62,159 bases of DNA from Burkholderiales bacterium (GCA_038106575.1 JAYOED010000006.1:1-62159), one strand, 5' to 3'. Positions 4,946 through 58,891 are shown, counted from the stretch's first letter. Notes: generated by a model not told the origin, from the sequence alone. Program-made: numbers and translations.

Positions 4946-4967
4946 ACATTTCTGCAAGGAGAGTCCC

Positions 4968-5498
4968 ATGACCCTGCGCGTCCTCGACCCCCGGCAATCG
5001 GCCCACGGCGAAGCCCTGCGCCTCGCGCCGCCACTAGCCTCCCTCGACGGTGCCGTCATCGGCATGATCGACAACGCCAAGATCGGCACCGAGCGCCTGT
5101 TCGACTTCGTTGAAGAAATTCTCAAGAAGGAACACGGCGTGCGCGAATGCATCCGCCGCCGCAAGCCCGACGCATCACGACCGGTGCCGGAGGCCATGTT
5201 GCTGGAAATGCGCGGCGCCGATGCCGTGCTGGCGGCAATCGGCGACTGAGGCAGCTGCTCGTCGTGCAGTCTGCACGACGCAATCGCAGCAGAACGGCTC
5301 GGCATCCCGGCGGTGGCCATCATCACCGACCGCTTTGCGCGCACCGCTCAGTCGGTAAGCCAGGTCAACGGACTGAAGGACTATCCCTTTGCGGTGATTT
5401 CGCACCCGGTGGCCAACAACAACGATGAAGTGCTACGCGAGAAAGCGCGCATCGCGCTCGCCGACATCCTACCGATGCTGATGCAGCGATCCGCGTAA
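4968..5498 (+). CDS. UGSC-motif selenoprotein (in-frame UGA at 5247-5249 read as selenocysteine), 176 aa
   Basis: ORFs 4968..5249 and 5313..5498 share one frame and are separated only by a TGA. Reading through gives ...ADAVLAAIGD-U-GSCSSCSLHDAIAAERLGIPAVAIITD..., conserved in two paralogs that carry TGA at the same column. AGGAGAG RBS before ATG 4968. Hairpin at 5260-5280. Confidence 0.8.
5260..5280 (+). promoter_or_regulatory. putative bacterial SECIS hairpin
   Basis: The 8-bp perfect stem CGUCGUGC/GCACGACG with loop AGUCU starts 11 nt after UGA 5247-5249. Confidence 0.6.
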
Positions 5499-5508
5499 CA
5501 AAAACCCG

Positions 5509-6708
5509 TCAGTCCCGCGTCGCCACCACCTTGTCGGCGATCAGCCGGTCGATGGCCGGCCTGTCGAGTCCGATGGATTCGAGCACACCACGGGTATGTT
5601 CCCCCACCTGTGGGATATCGATGCGGGTTCCGAAGCGCTGCCCGTCCATCTCGATCGGCAATACCGGCACCTTGGTCTTGACGCCGTTGTTCAGCGTCAC
5701 CGGTGTCATGCCTTTCGAAGCATTCAGGTGCTTGTCCTCGAACAGGTCTTCAGGTTTGGCGATGGGTGCGAACGGGAGGCCAAGTTTTTCGCAACGGTCC
5801 ATCAGCTCCTGCTTGCCCATCTTCGCGAAGATTTCGCTGACGATGGGCAGGATGCGCGGCCGCTGCTCGACGCGCTGTGGATTGGTTTTCATGTCCTGAT
5901 CGTTGAACAGCTCCATCAGCCCGAACGATTCGCAGAATACCTTCCACTGCGTGTCTGTCACCACGCCGACGAACACCAGATCACCGTCCTTCGTCTTAAA
6001 GTTGTCGTAGAGTGCCCACGCGCGCACGCGGTCGGGCATGGGCTTTACCGGCTTGCCGGTGGCGAAGCCTTCGAGCATGTGCTGCGCGACCAGGAATGCA
6101 TTGTTCTCGAACAGCGCGCTCTGCACGTACTGACCCTTGCCGGTGGCATGACGTTGATTCAGTGCAGCGAGTATCGCCACCGCGCCGAACACGCCGCCCA
6201 TCACGTCGTTGACCGAGGCACCAGCGCGCAATGGCCCGAAACGCCCGCCGGTCATGTAGGCGAGCCCGCCCATCATCTGCACCACTTCATCGAGTCCGGT
6301 GCGATGATCGTACGGCCCGGGCAAAAATCCTTTCAGCGAGCAAAAGACCAGCTCGGGCTTCAGCTTGCTCAATGCTTCATAGCCGAAGCCGAGCTTGTCC
6401 ATGGCACCGGGACGGAAGTTTTCAGTGACCACGTCGGCGCTGGCAATCAGCTTCAGCACCAGTTCGCGGCCTTTCTCCGACTTGAGATCGACAGCTAAGC
6501 TTTTCTTGTTGCGGTTGTAGGTCGGGAAAAACCCCGCGCCCGAAGCCGTCAGCTTGCGGGTGTGGTCGCCGTCAAGCGGCTCGACCTTGATCACCTCGGC
6601 ACCGAGATCGGCAAGCACCAGGCCGCAGGTCGGGCCCATCACCACGTGGCAGAACTCGATGACGCGGATGCCCGCGAGCGGTAGTGGCTGAGTCATGTCT
6701 GAATCCAT
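5509..6708 (-). CDS. family III CoA-transferase (CaiB/BaiF type)
   Basis: 399-aa ORF with the N-terminal pattern PLAGIRVIEFCHVVMGPTCGLVLADLGAEVIKVEP. The start could instead be the ATG at 6696. It is co-directional with the rhodanese gene upstream, with an 88-nt gap. Confidence 0.85.
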   Translation of the reverse strand: MDSDMTQPLPLAGIRVIEFCHVVMGPTCGLVLADLGAEVIKVEPLDGDHTRKLTASGAGFFPTYNRNKKSLAVDLKSEKGRELVLKLIASADVVTENFRPGAMDKLGFGYEALSKLKPELVFCSLKGFLPGPYDHRTGLDEVVQMMGGLAYMTGGRFGPLRAGASVNDVMGGVFGAVAILAALNQRHATGKGQYVQSALFENNAFLVAQHMLEGFATGKPVKPMPDRVRAWALYDNFKTKDGDLVFVGVVTDTQWKVFCESFGLMELFNDQDMKTNPQRVEQRPRILPIVSEIFAKMGKQELMDRCEKLGLPFAPIAKPEDLFEDKHLNASKGMTPVTLNNGVKTKVPVLPIEMDGQRFGTRIDIPQVGEHTRGVLESIGLDRPAIDRLIADKVVATRD

Positions 6709-6796
6709 TCAATATGGCTGTGTTGCCGGATGAAATTACTTTGCAGGCAATTCCCCGCGGGAAGGCCGACTATATCGCGAACCGGAAAACATGCTA

Positions 6797-8386
6797 CTAG
6801 GGGTAGCGGCGAAAGCCAAAATCGGAATCGCTGGCCACTGCATCAAGCAGCTCCACTTCCCATCTCAGGTATTCACGCATTGCCTGTTCAACGTTGTCCT
6901 TGCGGTCGAGCGCGCGATAGCTCAGGTCATCGGCAGCGCCGGTCATACGCGCGTCCCCAGTTTCCAGTCCGTAACCCGCCAATTGCCACGCAGCAGTGCC
7001 GCCAGTAAGCGCCTTGACTGGGGTTGCAGTCAGGGTCGCCGCGTCGGCCGCAGCCAGACGCGCCAGCATTTCTTCGGCTGCCGTGAACACCAGCAGCGCC
7101 GCCTGGGGAATTTTTATCAGCTGGTCCCGTATCCGGGAACGCACCACGTGCCACGCACCCGGAATATGTCCCTCGCGATACTGCAGGCTGCTACCAAGGT
7201 CGGCCACCTGCGCCTTGCCGTCTGCCAGCAGGCTCTGCAATTCCGCCGCCGCCACTGTTGCGGAGCATGGCTGTGCGCCGTCGAGCAGTGTCACCGGCAC
7301 CGGCCCGCGCTCGGTCAACGATGCCTCATCACAGGCCAGCACGTGCACTTCATCGTGACCCATCTGCGCCAGCCATGCCGCGGTCATCGTTGCACGAACG
7401 CCATCATTGTCGGTTAGTACTACCACCGACGGACGCACCGCGATGAAGGTATCGGTTGCCTGCACCAGTTGTCCGCCAGGTGCGGATAAGGCTCCCGGCA
7501 GATGGCCGGCTTCGAATTCCTCAGGGGCGCGCACGTCCAGCAGGTACAGCGTGCGCTTGCCGTCGGCCCGCAGTGCCTGCAACCGGGCAGCATCAATACG
7601 GCGGATGCCGAAGCGCTGCGCCACACGCTCTGCCGCCTGCTGTGCCCAAGCCCTGCCTTTGGTCGAAGGCGGCGGAACCGCCTCGGTGCGGCCGTGGTTC
7701 AGCTGCAGGCCAGCCAGCTTCCAGCCCTGGGTGCCGTCCTTCAGTGCATAGACCGGGTTCGGAAAACCAGCATTGATCAGCACCTGAGCGCCGATGATGC
7801 TGCGCGTGCGTCCGCCGCAGTTGACCACAACCGTCGTCTGCGCGGAACGCACGAAATCGGTCATGCGGTACGGTAGCTCCGCGCTCGGACAATCCCAGGC
7901 ACCGGGTATGCTGTTGCGACGGAATTCCGCCATTGGCCGGCTGTCGACGACCACCATGTCCCTGCTAGATTTCATCCACGCGTCGAGTTCGGTTGCCGTA
8001 ACTTCGCGCGGCGCATCTTCGTGCTGGATGTATTCGCCGAAAGCCTTGCTCGGCACGTAAACACCGGTGTAGAGCCGGAATCCCGCGGCCTTCCACGCCG
8101 ACGTTCCGCCATCGATCAACTGCACGTCGGCATAGCCGCCCGCCAGCAGTTTCACCGCAGCTAATTCCGCCAGGCCTTCGCCGCCGTCACAAACGACGAT
8201 ACGCACGTTCTTGCGCGGCAGCAGCGCCTGCACACGCAACTCGAGCACGCTCAACGGTACATTCGACACCCGCAGCAGATGACCATCTCCCGAATAGACA
8301 CCCTCCTCGCGTACGTCGAGTACGGCAATTTCTTCGCCATCGTCGAGCAGTCCCCGTAGTTGTCGAGGCGTGATCCGTCGCACCAT
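6797..8386 (-). CDS. four-domain rhodanese-like sulfurtransferase
   Basis: 529 aa from ATG 8386 (MVRRITPRQLRGLL...). Four rhodanese repeats are present. The active-site loops carry Cys in repeats 1 (VVCDGGEG) and 2 (VNCGGRTRS) but not in repeats 3 (LTDNDGVR) or 4 (FTAAEEM). The ATG overlaps the upstream TGA stop (TGATG). The 612-aa track ORF is an upstream extension. Confidence 0.8.
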   Translation of the reverse strand: MVRRITPRQLRGLLDDGEEIAVLDVREEGVYSGDGHLLRVSNVPLSVLELRVQALLPRKNVRIVVCDGGEGLAELAAVKLLAGGYADVQLIDGGTSAWKAAGFRLYTGVYVPSKAFGEYIQHEDAPREVTATELDAWMKSSRDMVVVDSRPMAEFRRNSIPGAWDCPSAELPYRMTDFVRSAQTTVVVNCGGRTRSIIGAQVLINAGFPNPVYALKDGTQGWKLAGLQLNHGRTEAVPPPSTKGRAWAQQAAERVAQRFGIRRIDAARLQALRADGKRTLYLLDVRAPEEFEAGHLPGALSAPGGQLVQATDTFIAVRPSVVVLTDNDGVRATMTAAWLAQMGHDEVHVLACDEASLTERGPVPVTLLDGAQPCSATVAAAELQSLLADGKAQVADLGSSLQYREGHIPGAWHVVRSRIRDQLIKIPQAALLVFTAAEEMLARLAAADAATLTATPVKALTGGTAAWQLAGYGLETGDARMTGAADDLSYRALDRKDNVEQAMREYLRWEVELLDAVASDSDFGFRRYP

Positions 8387-10116
8387 CAAATCCGGCACTC
8401 GTCGGCGGTGCAACCCAGATCGCGATCCGATTCGGCCAGCAGCCGGTCGAATGACTCCGGCGTGCGGATCACCCGTCCCACGACTGCAGGCGAATGCGCC
8501 TGCAGCCACTGGCTGTGCGTCGGATGGTCGCCGCCGGCGACCACCAGGATCAGGTTGTCGGGTTTCTGCGCGATCGGCCACGGATCGAGCCTGATGCTGT
8601 CGCGCGCCACCGGATTGGCATCGATCTCGATCCACGCCGGCCCGCCGCCGCGCTTGAGTTGCGCCATCGGAATCTTCGAATTTTCCCAGAGAAAATCACG
8701 CAGCTTCTTCGGCGTCCAGCCGAGCTTCGCCATCATGCCCGCGACCACCGGCGAGATCAGCATCGCGCCGGGCGTGCCCTTCTCCCATCCTGCCAGCGCG
8801 GCAAGATTCGGCGTGCGCATGAAATCCGCCATGCGCCACAGGCCCTGGGTGATGTCCTCTTCCGGCGTTTCCTTTTTTGCGCCACGGCGGCGGATGTTGC
8901 TGACGCCGCTGGCGAAAAACACCGACACTGCGTTTGTACCGGGCTCGAAACCGTGGCGCTGGGTCGCATGCGGCGCCCAGCCCTCGGGCAGGCTCGCCTC
9001 ATCCTCGGCAAACACAGCGTTGGTGTAGCGCATCGCGCCGAAGATCGCCATGGTGCCGATGCCCGGCAGCGCGCCGCCGACGTTCTGCTGCAGCAGGCGC
9101 AGCGCGCGGCCGATGCTGGCACCGGCGGGCCGCTGCGGATCAGGGCCGAGACAGCCAAAACCGGAATTGAGGCGGATGTCCTCCGCAATCGGGCCGTTGA
9201 CGATGACGACCGGAAAAGGGCTGCCCGAAGTCGCCTGCACCTGATCGAACAGCGTTGCGGGATCGAGGCAGGCCTCAACCGCAGCAACCAGCACCGGCAG
9301 GTACTCGGGTCGACCCCCGGCCATCGCCAGCGCCACCGCGCAGGTCTCGACCGTGGTGACGCCGCCGCGCGGCGGGAACTTGCCCAGCACCTGTGTGCGC
9401 GGGTAAGCCGAGCCGCGCAGTATCCAGTCGACGCGCTCGCGTGTCGCCGGCCACACCGGCAGGCCGTCGCCCCACAGATTGGTGATCAGCAGGTTGTTGG
9501 CTTTCTGCAGCGCGTCCTCATAGGTTTTCCCCTCCACGCTCAACATTGGCAGTTCGCCGTCTGCGGATTGCGCGTAATCGGATTTCCATTTCATCAATCC
9601 GTTGTAGAACTCCTTCTTGCGGGTGGAAATCGCCGTCAGATCGCTTCCCGGCAGGAACATATCGATCGGAAACGTCACCATCGCCGCATCGGGCGCAAGA
9701 CCGAGGCCCGACACCGCATTCTTCATCACGCCGACAAAATCCGTCCGCGTCAGGGTGACGGTGGGTATTCCCAGTGTTTCTATCCTCGCGGCAGCACGGC
9801 CGCAAGCGGTGGCGCAGGAGCCTCAGGCCGCGTTGCCGACGATGACCGCTTCAACGCCGCTTTTCTGGACCAGCGCAGCGGTCTCCTCGGTGGGAATCAG
9901 CACATTACCCTGGGGATAGGCATCGATCGGCAGCAGTTCCGCAGTCGGATAATCGGCCTTGATCAGATCGCGCAGCAGCGGCAGCATGCGAAACGCCTGC
10001 CACTGCTCGTTACTGACGAAACCGATGCGCTTGCCGTCGAGGGTATCGATGCGTGGCGCAAACGGCAGGGTGACCTCCAGCGCGCCGGACGGATCATGAA
10101 ATTCAAGTGTGACCAT
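8386..10116 (-). CDS. fused UGSC-motif selenoprotein + DGLPxxPPT domain (UGA at 9823-9825 read as Sec), 576 aa
   Basis: ORFs 9823..10116 and 8386..9729 share one frame and are joined across a TGA: ...VEAVIVGNAA-U-GSCATACGRAAARIETLGIPTVTL... The C-terminal part has NLWGDGLPVWPAT, MAGGRPEYLPVLVAAV and IVNGPI. GGAGG RBS before ATG 10116. Confidence 0.8.
9785..9806 (-). promoter_or_regulatory. putative bacterial SECIS hairpin
   Basis: Stem CUUGCGGC/GCCGCGAG (8 bp, one G-U pair) with loop CGUGCU, starting 17 nt after the UGA. Confidence 0.55.
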
Positions 10117-10142
10117 TGGTTAAACCTCCTTCGCCGATAATA

Positions 10143-11324
10143 CTAGCTGAGCAACATCTGCTGTATTCCTGCGTCCGCATTGTCTACTCCCAGACGATGT
10201 AGTGCCCCCACCCGCACCCCCAGCAGGCGGATGCGACGGTCAAGCGGCACGCGTTTCAGGCATTCCCCCGCGGCGCGGCGAATAACTTTTGCATCCTGCG
10301 TCGGCGTCTCCAGCGTCAGGTCGCGGGTGACGGTGTGAAAATTGTCGAAACGGATTTTGAGCCCTATGGTGCGTCCGGCGTGACCCTTGCGCCGCAGATC
10401 GCCGGCCACGCGCTCGCACAATGCCGTAAAAATCTCCGACAGCCGCGCCTTGTCGCGTACCGCATGCAGATCATTGTCGAACGTCGTCTCGCGGCTGATC
10501 GACTTGGGTTCACTCCAGGTTTTCACCGGACGGTCATCACGGCCATGCGCTGCTTCGTGCATCCACGCACCGAAGCTGTTGCCGAAATGCCTGACCAGCA
10601 GCGCCGGATCGGCCTGCGCCAGCTCGCCAACCGTGCGTATGCCCAGCTCCTCCAGCTTGACGTTCGCCTTCGGCCCGATGCCGTTGACCTTGCGCACCGC
10701 CAGCGGCCACACCAACTTGCGCACGTCGTCGTCGCGGATCACGCTGATGCCGGCGGGCTTGTTGAGTTCGGAGGCGATCTTCGACAGTAGCTTGTTGCGG
10801 GTAATGCCGATCGAACACGACAACTGCGTCGCTTCGCGCACCGCGCGCTGGATATCGGTGGCAATCGAGCGTACCCGCGCCCACGGATCGGGCGCACCTT
10901 CGGTAGCACTGGCCGCCACCACTTCCGTGAGATCGATGTAGATTTCATCAATGCCGCGATCCTCGACCTGAGGCGCAATCGCACGCACGGCATCCTTGAA
11001 TAGTCGCGAATAGCGGCGGTAGGCGTCGAAATCCGCCGGCAGCAGGATCGCATCGGGCGCAAACTTCGCCGATTTCATCAGCCCCATGCCCGAAAACACG
11101 CCGAGCGCCCGCGCTTCGTACGTCGAAGTCGTCACCACGCCACGGCCGGTATAGCCGCGCAGCGTGGCGAAGGTTCCGGTTTCCGCCTCATCCTGCACGC
11201 GCCGCCGTCCACCGACCACCACCGCCTTGCCGCGCAATTGGGAATAACGCAGCAATTCGACCGACGCGTAGAAGGCGTCCATGTCGAGATGGGCAATAAA
11301 GCGGGCGGGCGCGGCGGGTTCCAT
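10143..11324 (-). CDS. dinB: DNA polymerase IV (Y-family)
   Basis: 393 aa from ATG 11324 (MEPAAPARFIAHLDMDAFYASVELL...). Y-family palm, finger and little-finger regions are recognisable. The 518-aa track ORF is an upstream extension. Confidence 0.85.
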   Translation of the reverse strand: MEPAAPARFIAHLDMDAFYASVELLRYSQLRGKAVVVGGRRRVQDEAETGTFATLRGYTGRGVVTTSTYEARALGVFSGMGLMKSAKFAPDAILLPADFDAYRRYSRLFKDAVRAIAPQVEDRGIDEIYIDLTEVVAASATEGAPDPWARVRSIATDIQRAVREATQLSCSIGITRNKLLSKIASELNKPAGISVIRDDDVRKLVWPLAVRKVNGIGPKANVKLEELGIRTVGELAQADPALLVRHFGNSFGAWMHEAAHGRDDRPVKTWSEPKSISRETTFDNDLHAVRDKARLSEIFTALCERVAGDLRRKGHAGRTIGLKIRFDNFHTVTRDLTLETPTQDAKVIRRAAGECLKRVPLDRRIRLLGVRVGALHRLGVDNADAGIQQMLLS

Positions 11325-11418
11325 ATTGCGACAACCATGATACCGACCACGGGTGACAGCAGCACAGGGTTGGGTGTTTAATCGTGCGCTCCGCAATCCA
11401 GACCGACAGAAACCGATC

Positions 11419-12147
11419 ATGACTGAAGTCACCGCCGCCCTCCGCTCCGAATTTGCCCCCACCGGCACCCTCCGCGTAGGTCTCAACATGAGCAATTTCC
11501 TGCTGACCCGCACCGAAGCCGGCAAGCCACGCGGCGTAGCCCACGACCTGGGCATGGAGCTTGCCCGCCGCCTCGGCGTGCCCGCTGAGATGGTGCCGCT
11601 GCCGAATCCCGGCGCGCTCGCCGATGCCGCGGCCAAGAACGTCTGGGACGTGGGTTTTCTCGGCGCCGAACCTGCGCGCGCCAATGAAATCGATTTCACT
11701 GCGGCTTACGTCGAAATCGATTCGACTTATCTGGTACAGCCCGGTTCCACACTGAAACACGCCGACGAAGTCGACCGCAAGAGTGTGCGCATCATCGTTC
11801 CGGAACGTGCAGCCTACGAGCTCTATCTGTCACGCACGATCAAGAATGCCGAACTCGTAAAGGACAAGGGGGGAGACCTTTGCTTCCAGCGCTTCGTCGA
11901 CGAGAAATTCGACGCACTGGCCGGACTCAAGCCACGGCTGCTGTCCGATCAGGCCAAGCTGCCGGGATCGCGCATCGTTGACGGCCGCTTCACTGCCGTG
12001 CAGCAGGCCGCCGGCGTACCGAAGGGTAGGCCCAACGCAGCGAAATACCTCGCTGCCTTCATAGAAGACGTCAAAGCTTCAGGGCTGGTTGCAAAAGCGA
12101 TCAAGAACAACAACGTGGTCGGTCTGACCATCGCCGCTGCAGCCTGA
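11419..12147 (+). CDS. family-3 solute-binding-domain protein (PBPb type)
   Basis: 242 aa from ATG 11419 (MTEVTAALRSEFAPTGTLRVGLNMSNF...). It resembles polar amino-acid binding proteins. No obvious signal peptide. Start uncertain (the track gives 11353). Confidence 0.65.
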   Translation: MTEVTAALRSEFAPTGTLRVGLNMSNFLLTRTEAGKPRGVAHDLGMELARRLGVPAEMVPLPNPGALADAAAKNVWDVGFLGAEPARANEIDFTAAYVEIDSTYLVQPGSTLKHADEVDRKSVRIIVPERAAYELYLSRTIKNAELVKDKGGDLCFQRFVDEKFDALAGLKPRLLSDQAKLPGSRIVDGRFTAVQQAAGVPKGRPNAAKYLAAFIEDVKASGLVAKAIKNNNVVGLTIAAAA

Positions 12148-12162
12148 CTCAGGCGCAGTTTC

Positions 12163-13011
12163 TTACTGAGGACGCTCGCCGCTAATCTGAACGCGGTGCA
12201 TCATGCGCCGCGCTCTGTTGTCGAACGAATCGCGGCGGTGGATCACGCAGCGGTTGTCCCAGATAAGGGTATCACCCTGCCGCCACTCCTGCCCCCAGAC
12301 AAACTGCGGCTGTGAGGCATGCGCCCAAAGCCAATCGAGCAGTTCCTCGCTCTCTTCCAGCGGCATGCCGATGATCCAGGCATTGCGGCGGCGGCCAAGA
12401 GCCAGTGCCGGGCGTTTGGTCAGCGGATGCATTCGGAAGATTTTGTGCTGTGCTCCCGGCGCCTCGCGCGGATCCTTCACTTCTGAAAATCCTTTCCGCA
12501 ACTGGCCGGCGCTGTTGTAGGTCTCGTCGTGGATCAGCATCTTGCCATCGAGCTTTTTCTTCAGCTCCTCGGGCAGCGTGTCATAGGCCAGATACTGATT
12601 GGCGAAATAGGTATTGCCTCCAGCCGGAGGCACCTCCAGTGCATGCAGTATCGCGTAAGTGCAGGGTTTCACGCGATAGGACATGTCGGTGTGCCATATC
12701 GCTTCACCGTTGCCGAGGTTGCCCAGCGGATGGCCGTTCTCGGTAAGATTGGAAATCACCAGAATATCGGGATAGTCATCGAGGTAGGGCTTACCGATGA
12801 TGCTCATCCCCGGGGGCTCCAGCGGACCCAGTGTCTTCCCCAGCGCAACCAGTTGCGCATCGGAAATCAGCTGGTTGCGCACGACGACCACTAGATGTTC
12901 GAGCAGCGCCTGCTGGATGGCATCGACCGATGCAGTATCGAGCGCGACCAGATCCACTCCGGCCACCTCGGCACCGCAGCCCTTGCCTGATGGGATGATA
13001 CGGGTGCCCAT
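12163..13011 (-). CDS. TauD/TfdA-family Fe(II)/2-oxoglutarate dioxygenase
   Basis: 282 aa, H-x-D motif in IWHTDMSY, C-terminal ...WDNRCVIHRR. Confidence 0.85.
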   Translation of the reverse strand: MGTRIIPSGKGCGAEVAGVDLVALDTASVDAIQQALLEHLVVVVRNQLISDAQLVALGKTLGPLEPPGMSIIGKPYLDDYPDILVISNLTENGHPLGNLGNGEAIWHTDMSYRVKPCTYAILHALEVPPAGGNTYFANQYLAYDTLPEELKKKLDGKMLIHDETYNSAGQLRKGFSEVKDPREAPGAQHKIFRMHPLTKRPALALGRRRNAWIIGMPLEESEELLDWLWAHASQPQFVWGQEWRQGDTLIWDNRCVIHRRDSFDNRARRMMHRVQISGERPQ

Positions 13012-13029
13012 CGCGATCTACCCTTGGTC

Positions 13030-14469: not shown

Positions 14470-14542
14470 GACGAAAACCCTTACAGATAAATTGAACAGA
14501 GAGGCCGAAGGATAAACCAGTTTCGCGGTGGGGCGCAGCCGG

Positions 14543-15361
14543 TCAGTCGCTGATCTTCCGGAAATAGGCCTTGTTAGCGATATCGACCACGCTCATGCCC
14601 GCGGCGACGTCACAGTTGCGCTCTTCCTCCCCGGCCGAAAGCGCCTGCGCACGGGCCAGCACCTCCGCAATGCGGTTCCTTGGGATAAAACACACGCCAT
14701 TGTCGTCGGCAACGACCAGATCGCCCGCGCCGACAGGTACCCCGCAGATCTGCACCGGTCCGTTGATCGCCACGGTCTCGACGCGCCACTTACCGGTAAT
14801 CAGGCTGACGCCACGCGCCCAAACCGGATAACCGATGCTGCGTGCGGTGGCAATGTCGCGCGTCGCACCATCGACGATGGCGCCAGCTTCGCCCTGACGC
14901 TTGCCGACGTTGGCAGAATTGCCGCCGAGGCTGGAGATGTGCTCGACGCCTTCGATCACTAGCACGTCGCCGGGCTGCGCGAGATTGTGCGCCTCGATAT
15001 CGGCCTGTTTTGATTTGCGCTCCATCGCACCGAGCGTCGGCGGCACCGACTGCATGATGTTGCGCACGGTCAGCGCCGGCCCCACCATGCGCGCGCCGGG
15101 TAGCATCGGATTCAGTTTCCCAGCAGGCACTGCGCCGTGGATACCTAGTTCATCCATCGCATCGGACACCGTGCTGGCGAGGTCGGTCAGCGTGAGAAAG
15201 GCGTCGGTCACGGCCTTACCGGGACGCGGAATGTCGCGCATCACGATGCGTGCAGGATTGATCTTGCCGGTCAGCAGTTTGTTAGGCAATGCAGTGGTTT
15301 CCCCAATAGCGGCACACACAGCGTGCACCATGTGGATGCAGGCGATGATACCAAGAGTCAT
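14543..15361 (-). CDS. RraA-family protein (regulator of RNase E / HMG-aldolase-like)
   Basis: RraA core GDVLVIEG...[24 protein letters not shown]. The start is uncertain (candidates 15397, 15361, 15331) and none has a convincing RBS. Confidence 0.7.
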
Positions 15362-15417
15362 TGTGGGATACTTTGGTGAAAATAGTCTTGGCCGCAACCG
15401 GCTTGGAGGAACACATC

Positions 15418-16284
15418 ATGACCCTTAAAACACGCCGCCTGTCCAACGCGCTTGGCGTGGAACTGTGCGAGATCGACATCTCGAAGCCGATGAGCGAGAG
15501 CACGTTCGGCGAAATCCACCGCCAGTTTCTCGATCACGGCATCCTATTGCTGCGCGACCAGAACGTCAGCCGCGAACAGCACATCGAGTTCAGCCGCCGC
15601 TTCGGCGAGCTTGATGACCACGCATCGCTTCCGCGCGACCGCCACCCTGACTATCCCGAACTGCTGCTGGTCACCAACCGTCCCAACGCCGACGGTTCGC
15701 CGTCGGAATCGCGCTATACCGGCCGCCAGTGGCACACCGACCTGTCCTACACCACGGTGCCGGCGCTGGGTTCGCTGCTCAAGTGCTACAACCTGCCCGA
15801 AGTTGGCGGCGACACATTGTTCGCCAACATGACCATGGCCTACGAAGCGCTGTCCGACGGCATGAAGAAACTGATCGCCGATCTGCACGGCATCCATCTC
15901 TCGGGCACGCGCAAGATCAACGTCGCCGATGCCGGAGCCGCACGCCGCGACGAAGTGATGAAACTCAATCCGCCGATTGCGCAGCCGGTGGTGCGCGTGC
16001 ATCCCGAAACCGGACGCAAGGCGCTGTATCTCGGCGAGAAAGTGCGGCGCTTCGATGGTATGACCGAAGAGGAAAGCAAGCCGCTGATCGATTACCTGAA
16101 CAAACACTCCACCAAACCGGAATTCGTCTACCGCCATCAATGGCGCGAACACGACATCCTGGTCTGGGACAACCGCCGCACCCTGCACCAGGCGCTGGGC
16201 GACTTCGACGAAACCCAGCTGCGCCACATGGAGCGCACTACGGTAAAAGGGACTCCTTCGGGTTACGTCGTCAGTAACGGTTGA
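15418..16284 (+). CDS. TauD/TfdA-family Fe(II)/2-oxoglutarate dioxygenase
   Basis: 288 aa from ATG 15418, with a GGAGGA RBS 8 nt upstream. WHTDLSY motif, C-terminal VWDNRRTLH. Confidence 0.85.
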   Translation: MTLKTRRLSNALGVELCEIDISKPMSESTFGEIHRQFLDHGILLLRDQNVSREQHIEFSRRFGELDDHASLPRDRHPDYPELLLVTNRPNADGSPSESRYTGRQWHTDLSYTTVPALGSLLKCYNLPEVGGDTLFANMTMAYEALSDGMKKLIADLHGIHLSGTRKINVADAGAARRDEVMKLNPPIAQPVVRVHPETGRKALYLGEKVRRFDGMTEEESKPLIDYLNKHSTKPEFVYRHQWREHDILVWDNRRTLHQALGDFDETQLRHMERTTVKGTPSGYVVSNG

Positions 16285-16290
16285 CGCTGC

Positions 16291-16782
16291 TCAGCTCTGG
16301 GCGAAAACCGTTTCGATCAGCAGATCGATCGCCGCAGCCGCGAACGCATGCATGTTGGCGACGCGGTCTGTGCTGCCGGTCTCCATCGTGATCGCGCGTT
16401 CGACTGCCGGACCGACGACTGCAAGACAGGCGTGTCCCGCCGCGTAGCCGTAGCGGCTGCCGGTCGGCCCGGCAGCGCCGGTTTCTGTCAATGACCATTC
16501 GGTTGAAAGCTTTTCGCGCACGCGGCGCGCTTTCAGCAACGCATAGACTTCGGTGGAAGGCGTCATGTCCTTCATCTCGGCATCACTGATGCCGAGCAGT
16601 GCGCGGCGCAGTTCATAGGTATAGACCACCAGCCCGCCACGGCAGCAGGCTGAAGCACCGGGCACCGCTAGCAGCGCGGCATTGATCAACCCGCCCGCCG
16701 AGGATTCGGCGACGGCGATCATTTCACTGCGCGCGCTCAACAGTTTCACCGCACGTTCAGCGCGGAGCAGCAGTTCTTTCAT
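16291..16782 (-). CDS. CinA C-terminal-domain / PncC-like nicotinamide-nucleotide amidohydrolase family protein
   Basis: 163 aa from ATG 16782 (MKELLLRAERAVKLL...), with IAVAESSAGGLI as in CinA/PncC. Confidence 0.75.
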   Translation of the reverse strand: MKELLLRAERAVKLLSARSEMIAVAESSAGGLINAALLAVPGASACCRGGLVVYTYELRRALLGISDAEMKDMTPSTEVYALLKARRVREKLSTEWSLTETGAAGPTGSRYGYAAGHACLAVVGPAVERAITMETGSTDRVANMHAFAAAAIDLLIETVFAQS

Positions 16783-16810
16783 GTTGACCTTAATCTCTAG
16801 AGAATATATT

Positions 16811-18403
16811 TCAGTGCGGTGCACGCCTGATCATTTCGCCCGGCAGCGCATCGCTGCGGTTGCCGTGTTCTAGTACTGGCACGCCGTTGACCATAACCGC
16901 GACAACGCCAACCGCGAACTGGTGCGGGTCAGCATAGGTCGCACGTTCGGCGATGGTTACCGGGTCAAATACGGTCACATCGGCACGGCAGCCTGGACGC
17001 AACAGACCTCGGTCAGCCAGCCCAAGCGCCGCAGCCGAACGCCCTGTCATCTTGGATACCGCGGTTTCCAGCGGCAGCAGGTTCTCCTCGCGCACGTAGC
17101 GCCCGAGCACGCGGGCGAAGGTGCCGTAGAACCGCGGATGCGGTTTACCCTGGCCGGTAATCCCGGTCGGTGCAACTGCGTTGCCGTCCGAACCCACCAT
17201 CACTTCGGGAGCCCGCACGAATGCACGCACGTCATCCTCGGAAATTGATTCGACGACCACCCGAGTCTGGCCGCGGTCGGCAATAATGTAGTCGAGCGCT
17301 GCGTCGAACGGGTCCTTGTTCTGTTCCAGCGCAATCTGCGCGATGGTTTTGCCGGCGTGATGTCCAAGATCAGGCGATATCGAAATACGCACCGCATCCC
17401 AGGAGCGGATTCTTCCAAAATTGTTCAACCCGCCTGCGGCGATCTCGTCACGAACCCGTGCACGAACCGCCTCGTCGCCCAGCCTTACCAGCATGGCATC
17501 GATACCGTCCTGCTGCAGCCACGACGGCATCAGATTGCGCAGCGGATTGGATGCGGCGGTGTACGGATACTGGTCGCAGTCAATCTGCACGCCATCCGCA
17601 CGCGCTGCGGCTAGCCGCGCGAGGAAACGCTCCACAGTGCCCCAGTTGTCAGTACCCGACACCTTGGCATGCACAATCTGCACATGGACTCCCGTCTGCG
17701 CGCCGAATTCAATCGCCTCCTCGGCGGCATCGAACACCGCGTTGGCTTCGTCCCGCAGATGGGTGAAATAGCGCGCACCGTGGCGCCGCAGTACGCGACC
17801 GAGTTCGACCATCTCTTCGCCGCGCGCATACGACCCGGGCGCGGTAAACAGTCCTGACGACAGCCCCAGCGCTCCGGCTGCGAGCGCCTCCTCGAGCAAG
17901 GACACCATCAGCGCAAGCTCCACCGGTGTGGGTTTTCGAGCCTCCATACCCATGGCCATCAGGCGCAGCGTGTTGTGACCGACCAGCATTACGCGATTGA
18001 CAGCTGTGGCCGGATAGTGTGCCGCATAATCAGCGTAGCTCGTATCGCGGAATTCCAGCCACGGCGCGCTAGGCGAAAGGTATTGGCGTAGCGCGGCGGC
18101 GCGTCCCGGCAGGCAGGGTGCACAGGAATAACCGCAATGCCCGATCACTTCGGTAGTCACACCCTGGCGAATCTTGCTCTCAGCCTGCGGCATCAGCGGC
18201 AAAGTCCAGTCCGAATGTGTCTTGATGTCGATAAAACCGGGGGCAACCACCAGGCCCCGCGCATCGATCACCCGCGCACCGGTAACAGGCAGGTCACGAC
18301 CGACCGCTGCGATACATCCGTCTCGCAGCGCTACGTCAGCCGACTGTGGCGGGCCGCCGGTGCCGTCAATGACGGTACCGCCACGTACAACGATCGACTC
18401 CAT
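16811..18403 (-). CDS. N-acyl-D-amino-acid deacylase (D-aminoacylase) family amidohydrolase
   Basis: 530 aa from ATG 18403 (MESIVVRGGTVIDGTGG...APGFIDIKTHSD...EVIGHCGYSCAP). The ATG overlaps the upstream selenoprotein's TGA stop (TGATG). Confidence 0.85.
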   Translation of the reverse strand: MESIVVRGGTVIDGTGGPPQSADVALRDGCIAAVGRDLPVTGARVIDARGLVVAPGFIDIKTHSDWTLPLMPQAESKIRQGVTTEVIGHCGYSCAPCLPGRAAALRQYLSPSAPWLEFRDTSYADYAAHYPATAVNRVMLVGHNTLRLMAMGMEARKPTPVELALMVSLLEEALAAGALGLSSGLFTAPGSYARGEEMVELGRVLRRHGARYFTHLRDEANAVFDAAEEAIEFGAQTGVHVQIVHAKVSGTDNWGTVERFLARLAAARADGVQIDCDQYPYTAASNPLRNLMPSWLQQDGIDAMLVRLGDEAVRARVRDEIAAGGLNNFGRIRSWDAVRISISPDLGHHAGKTIAQIALEQNKDPFDAALDYIIADRGQTRVVVESISEDDVRAFVRAPEVMVGSDGNAVAPTGITGQGKPHPRFYGTFARVLGRYVREENLLPLETAVSKMTGRSAAALGLADRGLLRPGCRADVTVFDPVTIAERATYADPHQFAVGVVAVMVNGVPVLEHGNRSDALPGEMIRRAPH

Positions 18404-20103
18404 CAACGTCGCCCCGGCATCGCAATGGCCTTGCACACTGGAAACCCCAGTACCCCGTTGTGCGCGAACACGTAAATGCTGTTGCGGCCGAGATCGCCGG
18501 TGACAACGATCTGATAATCCCCGGGCCTCCATACCACGGGCACCAGCCGCTCCGGATCATCGGACTCGTGGAACAGCTTTGGAATGCGCCCGGCCTCGTG
18601 TTCCTCCTTCAGATTCCATGTCGGCTTCTGCGTCCAGTCGCGGAGAATGCGCTCGAAACGGTGAGCGGGCATGCGCGCCCGCGCAAACAGTTCCTCGCGG
18701 AATTTCTGCTTCGACCAGCCGCTGCCGGCGATGGTCTCGGCGACGATCGGCGACATCAGAATCAGCGGCCGCAGCGTGTCGTAGCCCTGCCCTACCGAAA
18801 ACATGATCTGCCATGAATACTGGCTGATCACCGCGTCGGCGATGTAAGGCATCAACTCTTCGGGTTTCGATCCCGACACCGACGAAATGTGGTTGCCGCC
18901 GGTGTAGCGCCCGACCGACAGCGCGTTGGTGCCTGCGGCGAAACCGTAATCGGCGCAGTTCGGCGTCCAGCCGATTTTCTTCACCACGTCCTCGTTCTCG
19001 GCCACCACCACGCGCCAAGTGTTGCCGAAAGTGGCCTTGTCGTTGCCGTGCGGCAGGAAGCCAGCGATGTTGCGCAGGCACAGCCGCCAGAAGCGGCCGA
19101 CCGTGGAATTAGCCTGGAAACCATCGCGCATCACGCCCTGCGTGTAATTGAAACCGAGTTCCTTGATCACCGGGCCGTTGAGGACGATCAGGTTCTCGCC
19201 GCCGGGGGTATTGCCGCTGTGCTCTACGCCATAGTTGTGATCCGCCATCGCTTCCACCGCCGCCACCAGCACCGGCATGTACTCCGGGCGGCAGCCCGCC
19301 ATTACGCCGTTGACTGCGGCGCTCCACACCGTCGCCGTGCGGTTGTCGGGCAACAGCACGCCAATGACTTCATCGGGTTTGCGGTCGGTATATTTTAAGA
19401 AAGCCTCGACCTTCTCCACCGTAGGCGGCACGACCGGCAGCCCGTCCGACAGCTGGTTGGCGATAAAATATTCGTTGATCTCTTCAAATGAGCCGGTGCA
19501 GACGACATCACGCGCCCCCGGTTCGCCGCTGACGGTTTTCGCCGCCGGCATGGTCAGCAGGTTGTCGATCACGCTGTTAAGCGTCAGCTCGCGCACGTTC
19601 TGCTGCAACGCTTCCTTGCTCTGCAAGCCAGGATGGCCACGCACCGGTGCCACCGCAATGTTCGGAAAACCTAAACCCTGCGAGGCCGCCTTTGCCAGCG
19701 TCATGAAGCTCTCACAGACCAGCGTCGAGGAGGGAATCCCTGCGCCTTCCGCCGCCACACTCGCCCGCAACACGGCGGGCGTGCAGCTTCCTCAACAACC
19801 CATCCCGGAAACGACGGCGTCGGCACCGAGCTCGCGAAGCTTCTGCGGCAGGTTGGCCACCACATTACGCTCGTCACTGCCATGGGTATTGCCGAACAGA
19901 TCCCAGTGCAGGAATTTCACGCCCGGATATTTCGCCGCCAGGCTTTTCTCAAGCTGCTCGAACACCTCGTTGCCGCGGAACACATAGTCCCACACCCAGG
20001 CGATGGTTTTGCCTTGCAGCGTATCGAGCCGTTTCGCCAGCGGTTTGACCTTGGCCTGGCGCGGACCGCGCGGCCACAGCGCCGCGTATTGCCGATCTGT
20101 CAT
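18403..20103 (-). CDS. fused UGSC-motif selenoprotein + DGLPxxPPT domain (UGA at 19792-19794 read as Sec), 566 aa
   Basis: ORFs 19792..20187 and 18403..19773 share one frame and are joined across a TGA: ...ADAVVSGMGC-U-GSCTPAVLRASVAAEGAGIPSSTL... The C-terminal part has NQLSDGLPVVPPT, MAGCRPEYMPVLVAAV and VLNGPV. Start set at ATG 20103, preceded by an AGGAG RBS. Confidence 0.8.
19762..19781 (-). promoter_or_regulatory. putative bacterial SECIS hairpin
   Basis: 7-bp perfect GC-rich stem CGCCCGC/GCGGGCG with loop CGUGUU, starting 11 nt after the UGA. Confidence 0.6.
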
Positions 20104-20225
20104 GCGAACTCCTGATTTTTCTTTTGATGGAACAGCATAACGCAACATTGCTCGGCGCCAGACACGGTTTCCACACTGCGGCGCCATGTCGCTAGAATCG
20201 ATGCTTCACCCCTATCCGGTATTGC

Positions 20226-21395
20226 ATGGACCAACGGCCCGCACGCATCCTCCCGGTCATCGTCGCCTCGCAGTTCGCCGGCACCTCGCTGTGGTTTGCA
20301 GGTAACGCCGTGCTCGCTGATCTGCAGCGCCTGTGGGGACTCGCGCCGGATGCACTCGGCTACGTGACCTCCGCGGTACAGCTGGGTTTCATCTGCGGCA
20401 CGCTGGTGTTCGCGTTTCTGACAATCGCCGACCGATATTCGCCGCGGCTAGTGTTCCTGCTATGTTCGCTCGCCGGGGCAGCTTCCAATCTCGGCGTGCT
20501 CGCCGCTGACGGCGGGCTGACCCCGCTGCTCGCCTGCCGTTTCGCCACCGGGTTTTTCCTTGCCGGCATTTATCCAGTGGGTATGAAGATAGCGGCGGGT
20601 TGGTACAAAACCGGACTCGGCAACGCGCTGGGCTTCCTGGTCGGCGCACTGGTGCTGGGCACCGCGTTTCCGCATCTGCTGAAGGCCCTGGGCCAATCAT
20701 GGCCATGGCAGCACGTGCTGATTGGCGTCTCGCTGATCGCCGCAGCGGGTGGCGGGCTGATGTACCTGCTGGTGCCCGACGGCCCCAATCTCGCCAAGAG
20801 CCCCAAATTCGATCCGCGCGCGCTCGCAGCGGTGTTCGCCGTCAGGAATTTCCGCGCCTCGGCGTTCGGCTACTTCGGCCACATGTGGGAGTTATATGCC
20901 TTCTGGGTGTTCGTTCCGGTCGCGCTCTCCGCGCGCGCGCCGCAGTTCGACGTGTCGCTATGGTCGTTCATCGTCATTGCTGTTGGAGCGCTTGGCTGCG
21001 TGGGCGGCGGCCTGATATCACTGCGTAGCGGCAGTGCCCGTGTTGCCTGGATTCAACTCTCCACCTCGGGCCTGTGCTGTCTGATTTCACCGCTGATGCT
21101 GTTAGCACCACCGGTGGCTGTCATCAGCTTTCTGGTGATCTGGGGCGTTGCCGTGGTCGGCGACTCGCCACAATTTTCGGCATTGAACGCCGCTAACGCG
21201 CCGCGCGCGTCAGTGGGCTCGGCGCTCACCATCGCCAACTGCATCGGCTTTGCCATCACTATCGGCAGCATCGAGCTGCTCAACGCGGCATCACACACCC
21301 TGCCGGTCGAATACCTGTTCCTGCTGCTAGCACCGGGGCCGGGGCTGGGATTGCTGGCGCTGCGCCCGCTTCTGCGGGCACAGCACCCCGCGTAA
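20226..21395 (+). CDS. MFS-type transporter
   Basis: 389 aa, highly hydrophobic with about 12 predicted membrane segments. It is divergent from the selenoprotein operon at 20103. Confidence 0.8.
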   Translation: MDQRPARILPVIVASQFAGTSLWFAGNAVLADLQRLWGLAPDALGYVTSAVQLGFICGTLVFAFLTIADRYSPRLVFLLCSLAGAASNLGVLAADGGLTPLLACRFATGFFLAGIYPVGMKIAAGWYKTGLGNALGFLVGALVLGTAFPHLLKALGQSWPWQHVLIGVSLIAAAGGGLMYLLVPDGPNLAKSPKFDPRALAAVFAVRNFRASAFGYFGHMWELYAFWVFVPVALSARAPQFDVSLWSFIVIAVGALGCVGGGLISLRSGSARVAWIQLSTSGLCCLISPLMLLAPPVAVISFLVIWGVAVVGDSPQFSALNAANAPRASVGSALTIANCIGFAITIGSIELLNAASHTLPVEYLFLLLAPGPGLGLLALRPLLRAQHPA

Positions 21396-21397
21396 CG

Positions 21398-22366
21398 TTA
21401 TTTCAGTTTCAGTCCGACCGACTTCACCACCTTCGCCCAGGTATCGATTTCCTCGTTGAAGCGTTTGGTGAATTCTTCCTGCGTGTTGGCGACCACATCG
21501 AGGCCCTGGGTCAGCAACAGCTTGTCGGTCTTCGGATCAGTGAGGATGCGCGAGACAGCCTGCTGGATTTTTACAGCGATGGCCTTGTCGGTCTTGCCGG
21601 GCAGAAACAGCGCATACCAGTTCTCCACACCGAAGCCGGGCACACCCGATTCGGCGATGGTCGGATACTCAGGCAGCGCAGGGGTGCGCTTCGGACCAAC
21701 GACCGCCAGCACGCGCAAGCGGCCCTTGGTGAAGAACGGCCGCGTCGAAATCACACTCGCCACCGTCAGCGTGATACGCCCGGCTACCGTATCGGTAATG
21801 CTCGGCGCCGTTCCCTTGTACGGCACGTGGGTCATCTTGATGCCGGTCATCTGCGAGAACATTTCCTGCGTCAGATGCTGCGCCGAGCCCAGCCCAGACG
21901 ATGAATAGAACAGTTCGTTGGGGCGCGCCTTGGCGAACGCGACAAGTTCCTTGATGCTTTTCACCGGCAGCGACGGATGAACCACCATGACGCCGGGCGA
22001 AACCACTGCCATCGTCACCGGCAGCAGATCGGTGCGGGCGTTGTAGCCGAGCTTCAACAGGCTCGGCGTGATGCTCACGCCCGCCGAGGTCATCAGCAGA
22101 GTGTAACCGTCGCCCGGCGATTTGGCGACGATGTCGGCGGCGATGGTACCGCCGGCGCCCGGACGGTTATCAGCCACCACGTTCTGTCCCCAGGCTTCGC
22201 CCAGCTTCGATGCGATGAAACGCCCGGTGGTATCGACGCCGCCGCCGGGGGCGAGCGCGATGATCATGCGGATCGGTTTGGTCGGAAAGTTCTGCGCGAA
22301 CGCCGCGCCCGTCATCAAACTCCCCAGCAGTATAGTGCCCAAGGCGACCGAAATCATTTTTTTCAT
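21398..22366 (-). CDS. Bug/TctC-family tripartite tricarboxylate transporter substrate-binding protein
   Basis: 322 aa from ATG 22366 with an AGGAGG RBS. Signal peptide MKKMISVALGTILLGSLMTGAAFA, then FPTKPIRMIIALAPGGGVDTTGR, typical of Bug receptors. Confidence 0.85.
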   Translation of the reverse strand: MKKMISVALGTILLGSLMTGAAFAQNFPTKPIRMIIALAPGGGVDTTGRFIASKLGEAWGQNVVADNRPGAGGTIAADIVAKSPGDGYTLLMTSAGVSITPSLLKLGYNARTDLLPVTMAVVSPGVMVVHPSLPVKSIKELVAFAKARPNELFYSSSGLGSAQHLTQEMFSQMTGIKMTHVPYKGTAPSITDTVAGRITLTVASVISTRPFFTKGRLRVLAVVGPKRTPALPEYPTIAESGVPGFGVENWYALFLPGKTDKAIAVKIQQAVSRILTDPKTDKLLLTQGLDVVANTQEEFTKRFNEEIDTWAKVVKSVGLKLK

Positions 22367-22430
22367 TGTTGCCTCCTGTTGATTGGTTCTGCGAACTGCT
22401 TTGTAAAACAAGTCTGAAATCGGTTGGTTG

Positions 22431-23213
22431 TCACTCCCACAGCCGCTCGGGTAGCGGCAGCCCGGCGAGATCGGCGGCGGTCAGCGGCCGGTCGGGGGTG
22501 ACGCCGATGCGCTCTAATACCTCAATCAGCTGCCGGCAGTGCTGCGCCGAATGCCAAGTCACCCGCTCAAGCACTAGGTGCGCGGGGGTTTCTCCAAAAT
22601 AAGTCTTGAGCACGCGTTCGAGTTCGCGATCTTCGATCCCGGTCCACCAGGATTCGAAGCGCTTCCACACGCCTTCGCCGTAGCACGCGATGTCGTCGCC
22701 GCTCTGTAATGCTTCCGGCGGCTCGTTATCGGCAATCTTCACCGAATACTCGGCGCCGTCCCAGGTTTCGAGGAACGACTCGCCGATGCGGAACACGTGG
22801 TAGCACAGCGTACGAATTACACGCTCGCGATGCGGAATCACGCGGTCACGAAAATGCTCCGCCGGAAACTGGCGCGCGTAACGCGCCGCAGCGGCAAACA
22901 CCATTCCGTATTTTCTGTACAGCTGTTCCGGAGAAAGGCGATCCTTACCCGGCAGCGGCAGTCTGGCAAACTTGGCAAAGGGATCGAGCATCTGGCCGAA
23001 TGCGTATTTATCGCCCTTCGCCAGCACCGGAACCTTGCGGATGCCGTATTTGTTGAACAGCAATTCACGGCCGCCCGGGTCGTTCAGCACATCGATCACG
23101 AGCATGTCCACACCATTTTTCGAAAGAAACTCTTTCGTGCGAAGGCAGCTACTTCACCCGGGCTGGGTGAAATAAAGAAATTTGTCGGCGGGGATGTCGG
23201 TCAATGTCGTCAC
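22431..23213 (-). CDS. glutaredoxin-like (U-x-x-C) + DinB/YfiT-like domain selenoprotein candidate (UGA at 23154-23156), ~260 aa
   Basis: The frame upstream of track ORF 22431..23111 stays open except for one TGA: (V)TTLTDIPADKFLYFTQPG-U-SSC-LRTKEFLSKNGVDMLVIDVLNDPGGRELL..GIRKVPVL. This is a Grx/Trx fold with Sec at the first redox position. The C-terminal domain has a DinB-like HSAQH motif. The start (GTG 23213 or TTG 23204) is uncertain. Confidence 0.65.
23121..23137 (-). promoter_or_regulatory. putative bacterial SECIS hairpin
   Basis: Stem CGAAAG/CUUUCG (6 bp) with loop AGUUU, starting 17 nt after the UGA. It is weaker and more AU-rich than the other three. Confidence 0.4.
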
Positions 23214-23299
23214 GAGATTTTACTGCGAAAGAAGCGGTATTGTAGTGCCATCGCAGCCGCTAGAGGTAGTTACAAAATAATCAATTAAAAAATATTTAA

Positions 23300-45770: not shown

Positions 45771-45912
45771 GCGATCTGATGCGCAGCGATAGGCCACCTA
45801 AAAGCCGTTACAATTCCGGACCGGGTTGCGGGCGATAGTCAGGGGCATTGCCCGCCGCTGCCCCGCCCTGCACTTCCACCCTGAACACGTCCCGGATGCC
45901 CTCAGCCTGCGC

Positions 45913-55738: not shown

Positions 55739-56133
55739 CGATAGATCTCCCGTTCAGGTCTGACTGGTTTAGGTTCTATTAGTCTGATTTGCCGTGTAAT
55801 GCACGGTGTCTAGAGCATGCCGAGGGAAAATGGCTTTGTCAATGTTTTCCAGAGGGGAAAACCGGTTTTTCCCGATAGTATTCATCCGTCTTAATCATCA
55901 ACGCAACATACCATCTTGAAATCCCGTTTGTATCTGCCCCCGACTCGCCGCACAATAGCAAGACCTGTGCCGAGGGAATCGGCGTCAAGTATGCAAGCAA
56001 GAGCAGAAACAAATCAATGACCTAGTCGGGAAACTTGAATTGTATGTCTGCAATAAATGTCTCTTATGATGCAAATAGTTCATCGTCGCTGCACGGTGAC
56101 ATATTGATGCCGCTGCCGGGGTAAGCCTGCGTC

Positions 56134-57744: not shown

Positions 57745-57803
57745 ATGCTCCTGTCAGAAGTTGCTCAGCGCAGGTTGGCGCGGCACGTACCAATTCCTGA
57801 CAT

Positions 57804-58802: not shown

Positions 58803-58891
58803 GCTTTCTCCACTAATGAACGAAGCCCGGTAAGCCGGGTCTATGAGTCGGAATTATCCGATATACTGGTTTCAACCGGGAGAGCCGATCA

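Follow-up and report, generated by a model that had tools for sequence, protein, structure and literature searches.

The bacterial selenocysteine insertion sequence (bSECIS) is described by the consensus model of Zhang and Gladyshev, summarised in PMC13188914, which allows a loop of 3-9 nt, an upper stem of 4-16 bp and a UGA-to-loop distance of 16-37 nt, expects a G at loop position 1 or 2 with, as a rule, G or U after it, and sets the energy at -7.5 kcal/mol or lower (PMC13188914). Two families of proteins containing selenocysteine (Sec, U) are of relevance here. The UGSC family and a 'UGSC/Unknown_1' fusion were reported in 2008 from ocean metagenomes (PMC2398784), and the family was treated in the Global Ocean Sampling (GOS) and Olavius symbiont metagenome studies (PMC2398784, PMC1976440); UGSC and Sec-glutaredoxin both appear in a 2026 review of prokaryotic selenoproteins (PMC13188914). 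We analysed a 62,159-bp stretch of DNA from a Burkholderiales bacterium (GCA_038106575.1, JAYOED010000006.1; 60% GC), referred to as the window, in which four genes, named S1 to S4, carry an in-frame UGA followed by a short hairpin. The four hairpins are very probably bSECIS elements within the coding regions of four selenoprotein genes: a UGSC gene (S1), two fusions of UGSC with a C-terminal domain that we call X (S2 and S3), and a glutaredoxin-DinB fusion (S4). The predicted genes and their Sec codons are as follows.

4968 to 5498, plus strand: S1 gene, a stand-alone UGSC family selenoprotein of 176 aa with Sec at residue 94.
5247 to 5249, plus strand: S1 Sec codon, an in-frame UGA in U-G-S-C.
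8386 to 10116, minus strand: S2 gene, a UGSC domain plus an uncharacterised X domain of ~430 aa, 576 aa in total with Sec at residue 98.
9823 to 9825, minus strand: S2 Sec codon, UGA, which is TGA in 79/79 orthologs.
18403 to 20103, minus strand: S3 gene, a second UGSC-X fusion, 566 aa from the Met at 20103 with Sec at residue 104.
19792 to 19794, minus strand: S3 Sec codon, UGA, which is TGA in 12/12 unique orthologs.
22431 to 23213, minus strand: S4 gene, a glutaredoxin-DinB_2 fusion, 260 aa from the GTG at 23213 with Sec at residue 20 in U-S-S-C.
23154 to 23156, minus strand: S4 Sec codon, UGA, which is TGA in 77/77 metagenomic orthologs containing the region.

The hairpins that follow these codons, together with the two candidate elements whose limits differ from those of the hairpin, are given below.

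S1 hairpin, plus strand: TGA at 5247-5249, 10 nt spacer, then CGUCGUGC-AGUCU-GCACGACG at 5260-5280, with a stem of 8 bp.
S2 hairpin, minus strand: TGA at 9825-9823, 16 nt spacer, then CUUGCGGC-CGUGCU-GCCGCGAG at 9806-9785, with 8 bp including one U-G.
S2 conserved hairpin core, minus strand: 9788-9803, GCGGC-CGUGCN-GCCGC.
S3 hairpin, minus strand: TGA at 19794-19792, 10 nt spacer, then CGCCCGC-CGUGUU-GCGGGCG at 19781-19762, with 7 bp.
S3 candidate SECIS as a whole, minus strand: 19754-19787, the upper hairpin 19762-19781 plus a lower stem GCUGCA/UGUGGC.
S4 hairpin, minus strand: TGA at 23156-23154, 16 nt spacer, then CGAAAG-AGUUU-CUUUCG at 23137-23121, with 6 bp.

An earlier note on this DNA had pointed out the four hairpins, and the coordinates, loops, stem lengths and G-U at loop positions 2-3 that it gave are correct at all four sites, as are the peptides encoded over them (SSCSLHD, ACGRAAA, TPAVLRA and TKEFLS, S1 to S4). 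All four hairpins lie inside the coding region, immediately 3' of the in-frame UGA; their loops of 5, 6, 6 and 5 nt and stems of 8, 8, 7 and 6 bp (S1 to S4) are within the ranges allowed by the bSECIS model, the loops start with N-G-U, and the UGA-to-loop distances are 18, 24, 17 and 22 nt. Comparison with this model, which the same note had proposed, therefore finds agreement in loop, stem and spacing at every site, with the energy threshold reached by S1, S2 and S3 (-13.3, -12.7 and -13.6 kcal/mol for the isolated hairpins) and not by S4. S1 comes close to the archetype, a SECIS defined by experiment: in Escherichia coli fdhF, 11 nt follow the UGA and then GGUUGCAGGUCUGCACC, and in S1, 10 nt follow and then CGUCGUGCAGUCUGCACGACG, so that the S1 apex UGC-AGUCU-GCA stands beside the fdhF apex UGC-AGGUCU-GCA with its loop G and U in the same register, at positions 23 and 24 from the U of the UGA. 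We take these two positions to be those contacted by SelB in fdhF. The loop GU starts at position 29 in S2, 22 in S3 and 27 in S4, within the published spacing range.

The genes themselves read as members of recognised families. Reading through the TGA at all four sites gives continuous frames with a coding-type, high GC content at third codon positions (GC3) on both sides, as in S1, with 0.79 upstream of the UGA and 0.78 downstream. S1 scores 170.8 bits against PF24696 and 131.9 bits against NF041046, over the cutoff of 125; S2 and S3 score 72.8 and 93.8 bits against PF24696, over its cutoff of 25, and stay under the NF041046 equivalog cutoff of 125 (43.6 and 46.4 bits) because they are fusions. 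S4 matches PF00462 at 44.7 bits, over the cutoff of 22.9, as well as DinB_2, and its U-S-S-C occupies the CxxC position of glutaredoxin. It falls far below the cutoffs of the curated Uxx-star models (NF041212, 27.6 vs 66; NF047338, 19.9 vs 97; NF041211, 17.4 vs 100 bits), and S4 does not belong to the curated NCBIfam Uxx-star glutaredoxin-like selenoprotein families.

Homologs pair each of the fusion Sec codons with cysteine (Cys). Full-length S2 homologs of 575 aa and ~61% identity read GNAACGSC where S2 reads GNAA-TGA-GSC, the U of S3 is aligned with the same Cys (P0047), and Cys-form homologs of S4 (250-276 aa) read QPGCSSCLRTKEFL, with QPGCSSC or QPGCTSC. Among orthologs the UGA is kept. 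The S2 orthologs came from 80 genome loci, mostly metagenome-assembled genomes (MAGs) of Burkholderiales at 66-95% identity, and all 79 that contain the region have TGA at the S2 codon, within the motif variants UGSC, UGAC or UGTC; the same holds for the S3 codon in its 12 unique orthologs and for the S4 codon in 77 of 77 metagenomic orthologs at 68-92% identity. The S1 TGA is kept in locus L001 and in six S1-type paralogs or orthologs. No Cys-form UGSC genes were found within the fetched ortholog loci. The flanks of the 80 S2 loci (+/-10 kb) hold orthologs of S1, S3 or S4 only in L001 (S1 and S3) and L003 (S3).

A further paralog extends the comparison. Locus L161 holds a UGSC-X fusion at 632-2332 on the plus strand, with TGA at 950 and the motif U-G-T-C, in a genome that also holds S3 and S4 orthologs, and the hairpin after its UGA differs from those of the window: CCGGCCUC-GGU-GAGGCCGG, 12 nt past the UGA. 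Across paralogs, the hairpin structure and a loop with G followed by G or U persist as the sequence changes. A division of the elements into two discrete spacing classes, 10 and 16 nt, was rejected on account of the 12 nt in this paralog.

Within each ortholog set, synonymous sites over the hairpins are frozen. In the 79 S2 orthologs the third positions of codons +7 (UGC), +8 (GGC) and +11 (GCC/GUC) are invariant and codon +9 is CGU in 75, neighbouring four-fold sites having an entropy of 1.2-1.9 bits, and synonymous codon entropy is 0.10 within the hairpin vs 1.02 outside (p = 0.005). S3 codons +4 to +9 (ACG CCC GCC GUG UUG CGG) are identical in 12 of 12 sequences, with an entropy of 0 within the hairpin vs 0.96 outside (p = 1.6e-4). 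S4 codons +6 to +11 (ACG AAA GAG UUU CUU UCG) are identical in all 77, every synonymous site included, which gives 0 within vs 0.98 outside (p = 5e-5), flanking third positions having mostly ~1-1.7 bits; this 18-nt stretch includes Leu and Ser codons from six-fold families and codons ending in A or U, the latter being atypical of the genome. Two Cys-form S2 homologs encode GRAAA as GGG CGA GCG GCG GCG and GGU CGC GCG GCG GCG, and both are without the frozen hairpin, which uses GGC CGU. Taken together, these alignments show that the hairpin nucleotides are under selection beyond the protein requirement.

Conservation of the pairing itself can be followed in the orthologs, a comparison that the earlier note had also suggested. 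The cores are kept, with 7, 5, 6 and 6 bp conserved in S1, S2, S3 and S4, and conservation does not extend to the outermost 1-3 bp in S2 and S3: the outer three S2 pairs are unsupported (U-A in 17 orthologs, G-C in 8, A.A in 32), and the seventh S3 pair has the partner G in 5 sequences, A in another 5 and C in the remaining 2. Loop GU is present in 75 of the 79 S2 orthologs and in all S1-type, S3 and S4 sequences. In the seven S1-type sequences, 7 bp are conserved and 91% of cells are paired, vs 16-59% with slid 3' partners; the apical pair switches between C-G and G-C (GC in 4, CG in 3), a compensatory change accompanied by a peptide change from SSCSLHD to SSWSVHD, and one C-G is replaced by a U-G wobble, the loop staying A-G-U-N-U. 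An Ala to Val replacement (GCC to GUC) in 14 S2 orthologs keeps the pairing as G-U. Covariation is scarce, amounting to one compensatory pair in S1-type sequences. The claim that structure is maintained independently of the peptide stands for the comparison across the four paralogous genes; within each ortholog set the hairpins simply do not vary, which leaves almost no covariation. Two stem extensions were rejected as parts of the elements, the S1 lower stem GCUGC/GCAGC, which is not conserved in orthologs, and the three outer pairs of S2, which some of the orthologs lack. Synonymous sites beside the UGA are unusually conserved too: entropy is 0.1-0.4 at S2 codons -5 to -3 and +2 to +4, and the S3 Cys codon before the UGA (19795-19797) is TGT in 12 of 12 sequences despite the GC-rich codon bias, which may reflect a recoding context effect or extra structure.

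Hairpins of this kind are rare elsewhere in the window. A narrow pattern (stem of at least 6 bp, loop of 5-6 nt with N-G-U, offset of 10-16 nt) is present at 4 of 4 sites vs 3 of 1799 other TGA triplets and 63 of 24,832 sampled positions (0.25%), the background being ~2% for a looser pattern and 18% for any hairpin of at least 6 bp. We also implemented the bSECIS constraints (loop of 3-9 nt with G at position 1 or 2, UGA-to-loop distance of 16-37 nt; PMC13188914), under which a perfect hairpin at -7.5 kcal/mol or lower follows 6.6% of other TGAs and 1.3% when GU is required, and the energies of S1 to S3, with GU in the loop, are reached at 0.2% of them. No bSECIS-type hairpin at -7.5 kcal/mol or lower follows the genuine TGA stops of called genes (0 of 15). 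At other TGAs and sampled positions the narrow pattern does not reach the similar frequency that the earlier note had named as speaking against its idea. Synonymous resampling with the peptide kept, the kind of control for which that note had called, equals or exceeds the observed hairpin in 20, 335, 59 and 60 of 3000 trials for S1, S2, S3 and S4. Judged on this one genome, S1 and S3 clearly stand out, S2 and S4 are no more than suggestive, and the S4 hairpin is not exceptional. Scans for hairpins after any TGA, and for open high-GC3 frames flanking a TGA, found no additional Sec codons in the window. TGA serves as the ordinary stop for at least 15 other genes of the window, and therefore the codon is not reassigned.

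Gene context, Sec/Cys pairing, the kept codon, the fit to the model and the frozen synonymous sites all agree with the proposal that the hairpins are elements recognised by SelB. Its binding we infer from the mechanism established in E. coli and Moorella: SelB-GTP with Sec-tRNA(Sec) would use its C-terminal winged-helix domain to bind the apical stem-loop and read the extruded G-U there, and would thereby be held at the mRNA entrance of the ribosome; once the UGA enters the A site, Sec-tRNA(Sec) would be delivered in competition with RF2.

Several observations weigh against this interpretation. Neither selA, selB and selD nor tRNA-Sec (selC) lies within the window, and Rfam returned no match at gathering score over the whole window and no relevant match at E <= 10 in 4900-23400. 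The AU-rich S4 hairpin is weaker than the energy threshold of the model (-5.2 vs -7.5 kcal/mol in isolation, with a 60-nt minimum free energy (MFE) of -11.8), and a hairpin of its quality follows 4.1% of other TGAs; the invariance of its 18 nt is all that makes it convincing. The S2 peptide alone favours GC hairpins, 11% of synonymous resamples being comparable (p ~0.11), one Cys-form S2 homolog carries an unrelated GC hairpin by chance, and 4 of the 79 S2 orthologs have GG, not GU, in the loop. Lastly, the alignments show constraint at the nucleotide level, and base-paired structure receives direct support for the S1 type only.

Part of this would be expected if the hairpins were by-products of the peptides and of GC-rich codon usage and had no RNA function, the UGAs perhaps being read as Sec through another signal. 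The 335 of 3000 resamples for S2 and the chance hairpin of the Cys-form homolog fit such an origin, and so does the peptide CLRTKEFL, which is kept in the Cys forms of S4 as well. A comparison of 60-nt folds with dinucleotide shuffles also leans this way, none of the MFE z-scores reaching significance (-1.5, 0.27, -1.09 and 0.14, S1 to S4); this test is powerless here because the hairpins are so short. Protein sequence and codon usage do not, however, account for the freezing of synonymous sites, in three independent sets of orthologs, precisely where the hairpins lie, rare codons (AAA, UUU, CUU) included in a genome whose genes have a GC3 near 0.75, for the other codons that the two S2 Cys forms use for the same peptide, or for a narrow pattern found at only 0.2% of other TGAs. 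We consider a by-product origin very unlikely.

We judge it just as improbable that the UGAs are decoded or bypassed without SelB, for example by near-cognate or suppressor read-through stimulated by the hairpin, or as split genes with hairpin-aided coupling or re-initiation. SelB and tRNA-Sec are not seen in the window, and public gene callers annotate the pieces as separate open reading frames (ORFs), both of which would suit such a scheme. It leaves aside that in every case the UGA stands in for the leading Cys of a U/CxxC redox motif, the hallmark of Sec, that both UGSC and glutaredoxin count among the recognised families of selenoproteins (PMC2398784, PMC13188914), and that the loop G-U and the spacing fit the SelB-dependent model and E. 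coli fdhF. The downstream fragments, moreover, often have no proper start at the junction; in the S2 frame the first start codon lies 31 codons past the UGA. A third possibility, in which each TGA is a true stop, a recent pseudogenising mutation or a sequencing error and the hairpin beside it a coincidence, is exceedingly improbable. An ORF broken in frame does occur in the window (the DUF72 gene, TAA at 56410-56412), yet the orthologs, which come from different species and metagenomes, all have TGA at the very same codon (79/79, 12/12 and 77/77), and protein conservation and GC3 are high on both sides.

A more speculative extension can be considered, which we put forward as a possibility somewhat short of an even chance: S4 may represent a widespread, undescribed or uncurated subfamily of glutaredoxin-DinB selenoproteins with an atypical SECIS, and UGSC together with X may likewise form a two-part selenoenzyme. 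The S4 hairpin, AU-rich with 6-7 bp and below the threshold yet invariant over 18 nt in 77 orthologs, would point to recognition by the Burkholderiales SelB that is sequence-specific and not purely structural.

The X domain recurs outside the fusions. One more gene has to be introduced here.

3875 to 4945, plus strand: stand-alone X protein gene, immediately upstream of S1 and homologous to the C-terminal domain of S2 and S3.

Its product and the S2/S3 C-terminal domain share 32% identity (E = 1e-35), and therefore UGSC and X are adjacent or fused three times in the window. X spans ~350-430 aa with the motifs DGLPxxPPT and MAGxRPEYLPV, always occurs with UGSC in the window, and forms the C-terminal fusion partner in parts of 8386-9729 and 18403-19773, both on the minus strand. 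The pair of an X gene and a short UGSC gene recurs in locus L020. X is probably the 'Unknown_1' domain of PMC2398784; it gave no sequence match in Pfam, NCBIfam or PDB. The unassigned ORF at 41708-42862 was considered as another X-domain homolog and rejected, the comparison showing no homology. An AlphaFold model of a Cys-form UGSC-X fusion (predicted local distance difference test, pLDDT, 81.3; predicted template modelling score, pTM, 0.76) gave no Foldseek match in PDB at E < 1e-3, and the weak top matches (E ~3e-3 to 1e-2) were mostly flavodoxin-like domains of ~150 residues each. We take the ~150 residues aligned to flavodoxin-like folds as the UGSC domain, a placement that is our own reading of a Foldseek output without an aligned query range and that, on this model, would leave X without a structural relative. 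The recurrent UGSC-X pairing offers a concrete lead to the function of a selenoprotein family that is among the most abundant in the environment.

The four genes are new, mis-annotated members of known selenoprotein families with a known type of element, and, the mechanism being textbook, their main value is practical and concerns annotation. The closest public homologs of S2, S3 and S4 are fragments that start after the TGA (446, ~455 and 224 aa) and match the window fragments past the Sec codon at 8386-9729, 18403-19773 and 22431-23105. For S4 there are over 3600 homologs; without exception, the closest 120 carry the annotation of a truncated 'DinB family' protein of 224 aa. The error is systematic and affects thousands of UGSC-X and glutaredoxin-DinB entries, for the repair of which the frozen hairpin sequences could serve as markers. 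The data offer a clear case in which the freezing of synonymous sites reveals short bacterial SECIS elements and covariation and MFE z-scores do not. Beyond routine annotation, two points deserve attention, namely the weak but invariant SECIS of the glutaredoxin-DinB genes, which curated selenoprotein models leave uncovered, and the recurrence of UGSC with X.

Several neighbouring genes accompany the UGSC-X genes. The gene directly downstream of S2 (6797-8380, minus strand) encodes four rhodanese domains, an arrangement present in ~12 of the closest S2 loci (L001, L003, L005, L011-L016, L021, L024), and this neighbour may be a sign that the UGSC-X protein has a part in sulfur or selenium transfer. 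S3-type UGSC-X genes are followed by a CinA/PncC-like gene, at 16291-16824 (minus strand) in the window, 11310-11801 in L161, 3382-3870 in L165 and 3328-3822 in L171, which in several genomes begins before the UGSC-X gene has ended (the overlap in L161 is 8 nt); between S3 and the CinA/PncC-like gene the window has an amidohydrolase gene (16811-18532). Elsewhere, the DUF72-like ORF at 56125-57147 (plus strand), recognised by eye from its translation, contains the in-frame TAA in 'IDRSF*GPLS', which looks like a nonsense mutation, pseudogene or assembly error; it is not a Sec codon. An ORF of 1917 aa (45802-51555, plus strand) has repeated ABC ATPase and UvrA-type domains, as a double-length UvrA-like protein, and two MsrA (PMSR) paralogs, at 57181-57753 on the minus strand and 58847-59530 on the plus strand, flank a fructose-1,6-bisphosphatase gene and use ordinary codons with no in-frame TGA. 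The window is chromosomal, with many TctC-type receptors, in keeping with Burkholderiales, and its closest relative is the MAG contig JAYQOT010000001.1.

Set against the known systems, S4 resembles Sec-glutaredoxin in having a UxxC active site in a glutaredoxin fold with a SECIS hairpin just downstream, and differs from it in being fused to a C-terminal DinB_2 domain; a literature search of limited reach found no description of a Sec-containing glutaredoxin-DinB fusion. Compared with fdhF, the four hairpins of the window have no bulged U matching U17, their stems are perfect and, in S1 to S3, more GC-rich, and the stem starts 10 or 16 nt past the UGA (12 in the L161 paralog) instead of 11. The three UGSC genes share with the described family the U-G-S-C motif, a large excess of Sec over Cys forms and abundance in non-marine samples. 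In contrast to that family, the window has three copies in one 18-kb stretch, the X partner is fused in S2 and S3 but has a neighbouring gene of its own at 3875-4945, and the AlphaFold model is weakly nearest to flavodoxin-like folds, as opposed to the thioredoxin-like fold suggested in 2008 (PMC2398784).

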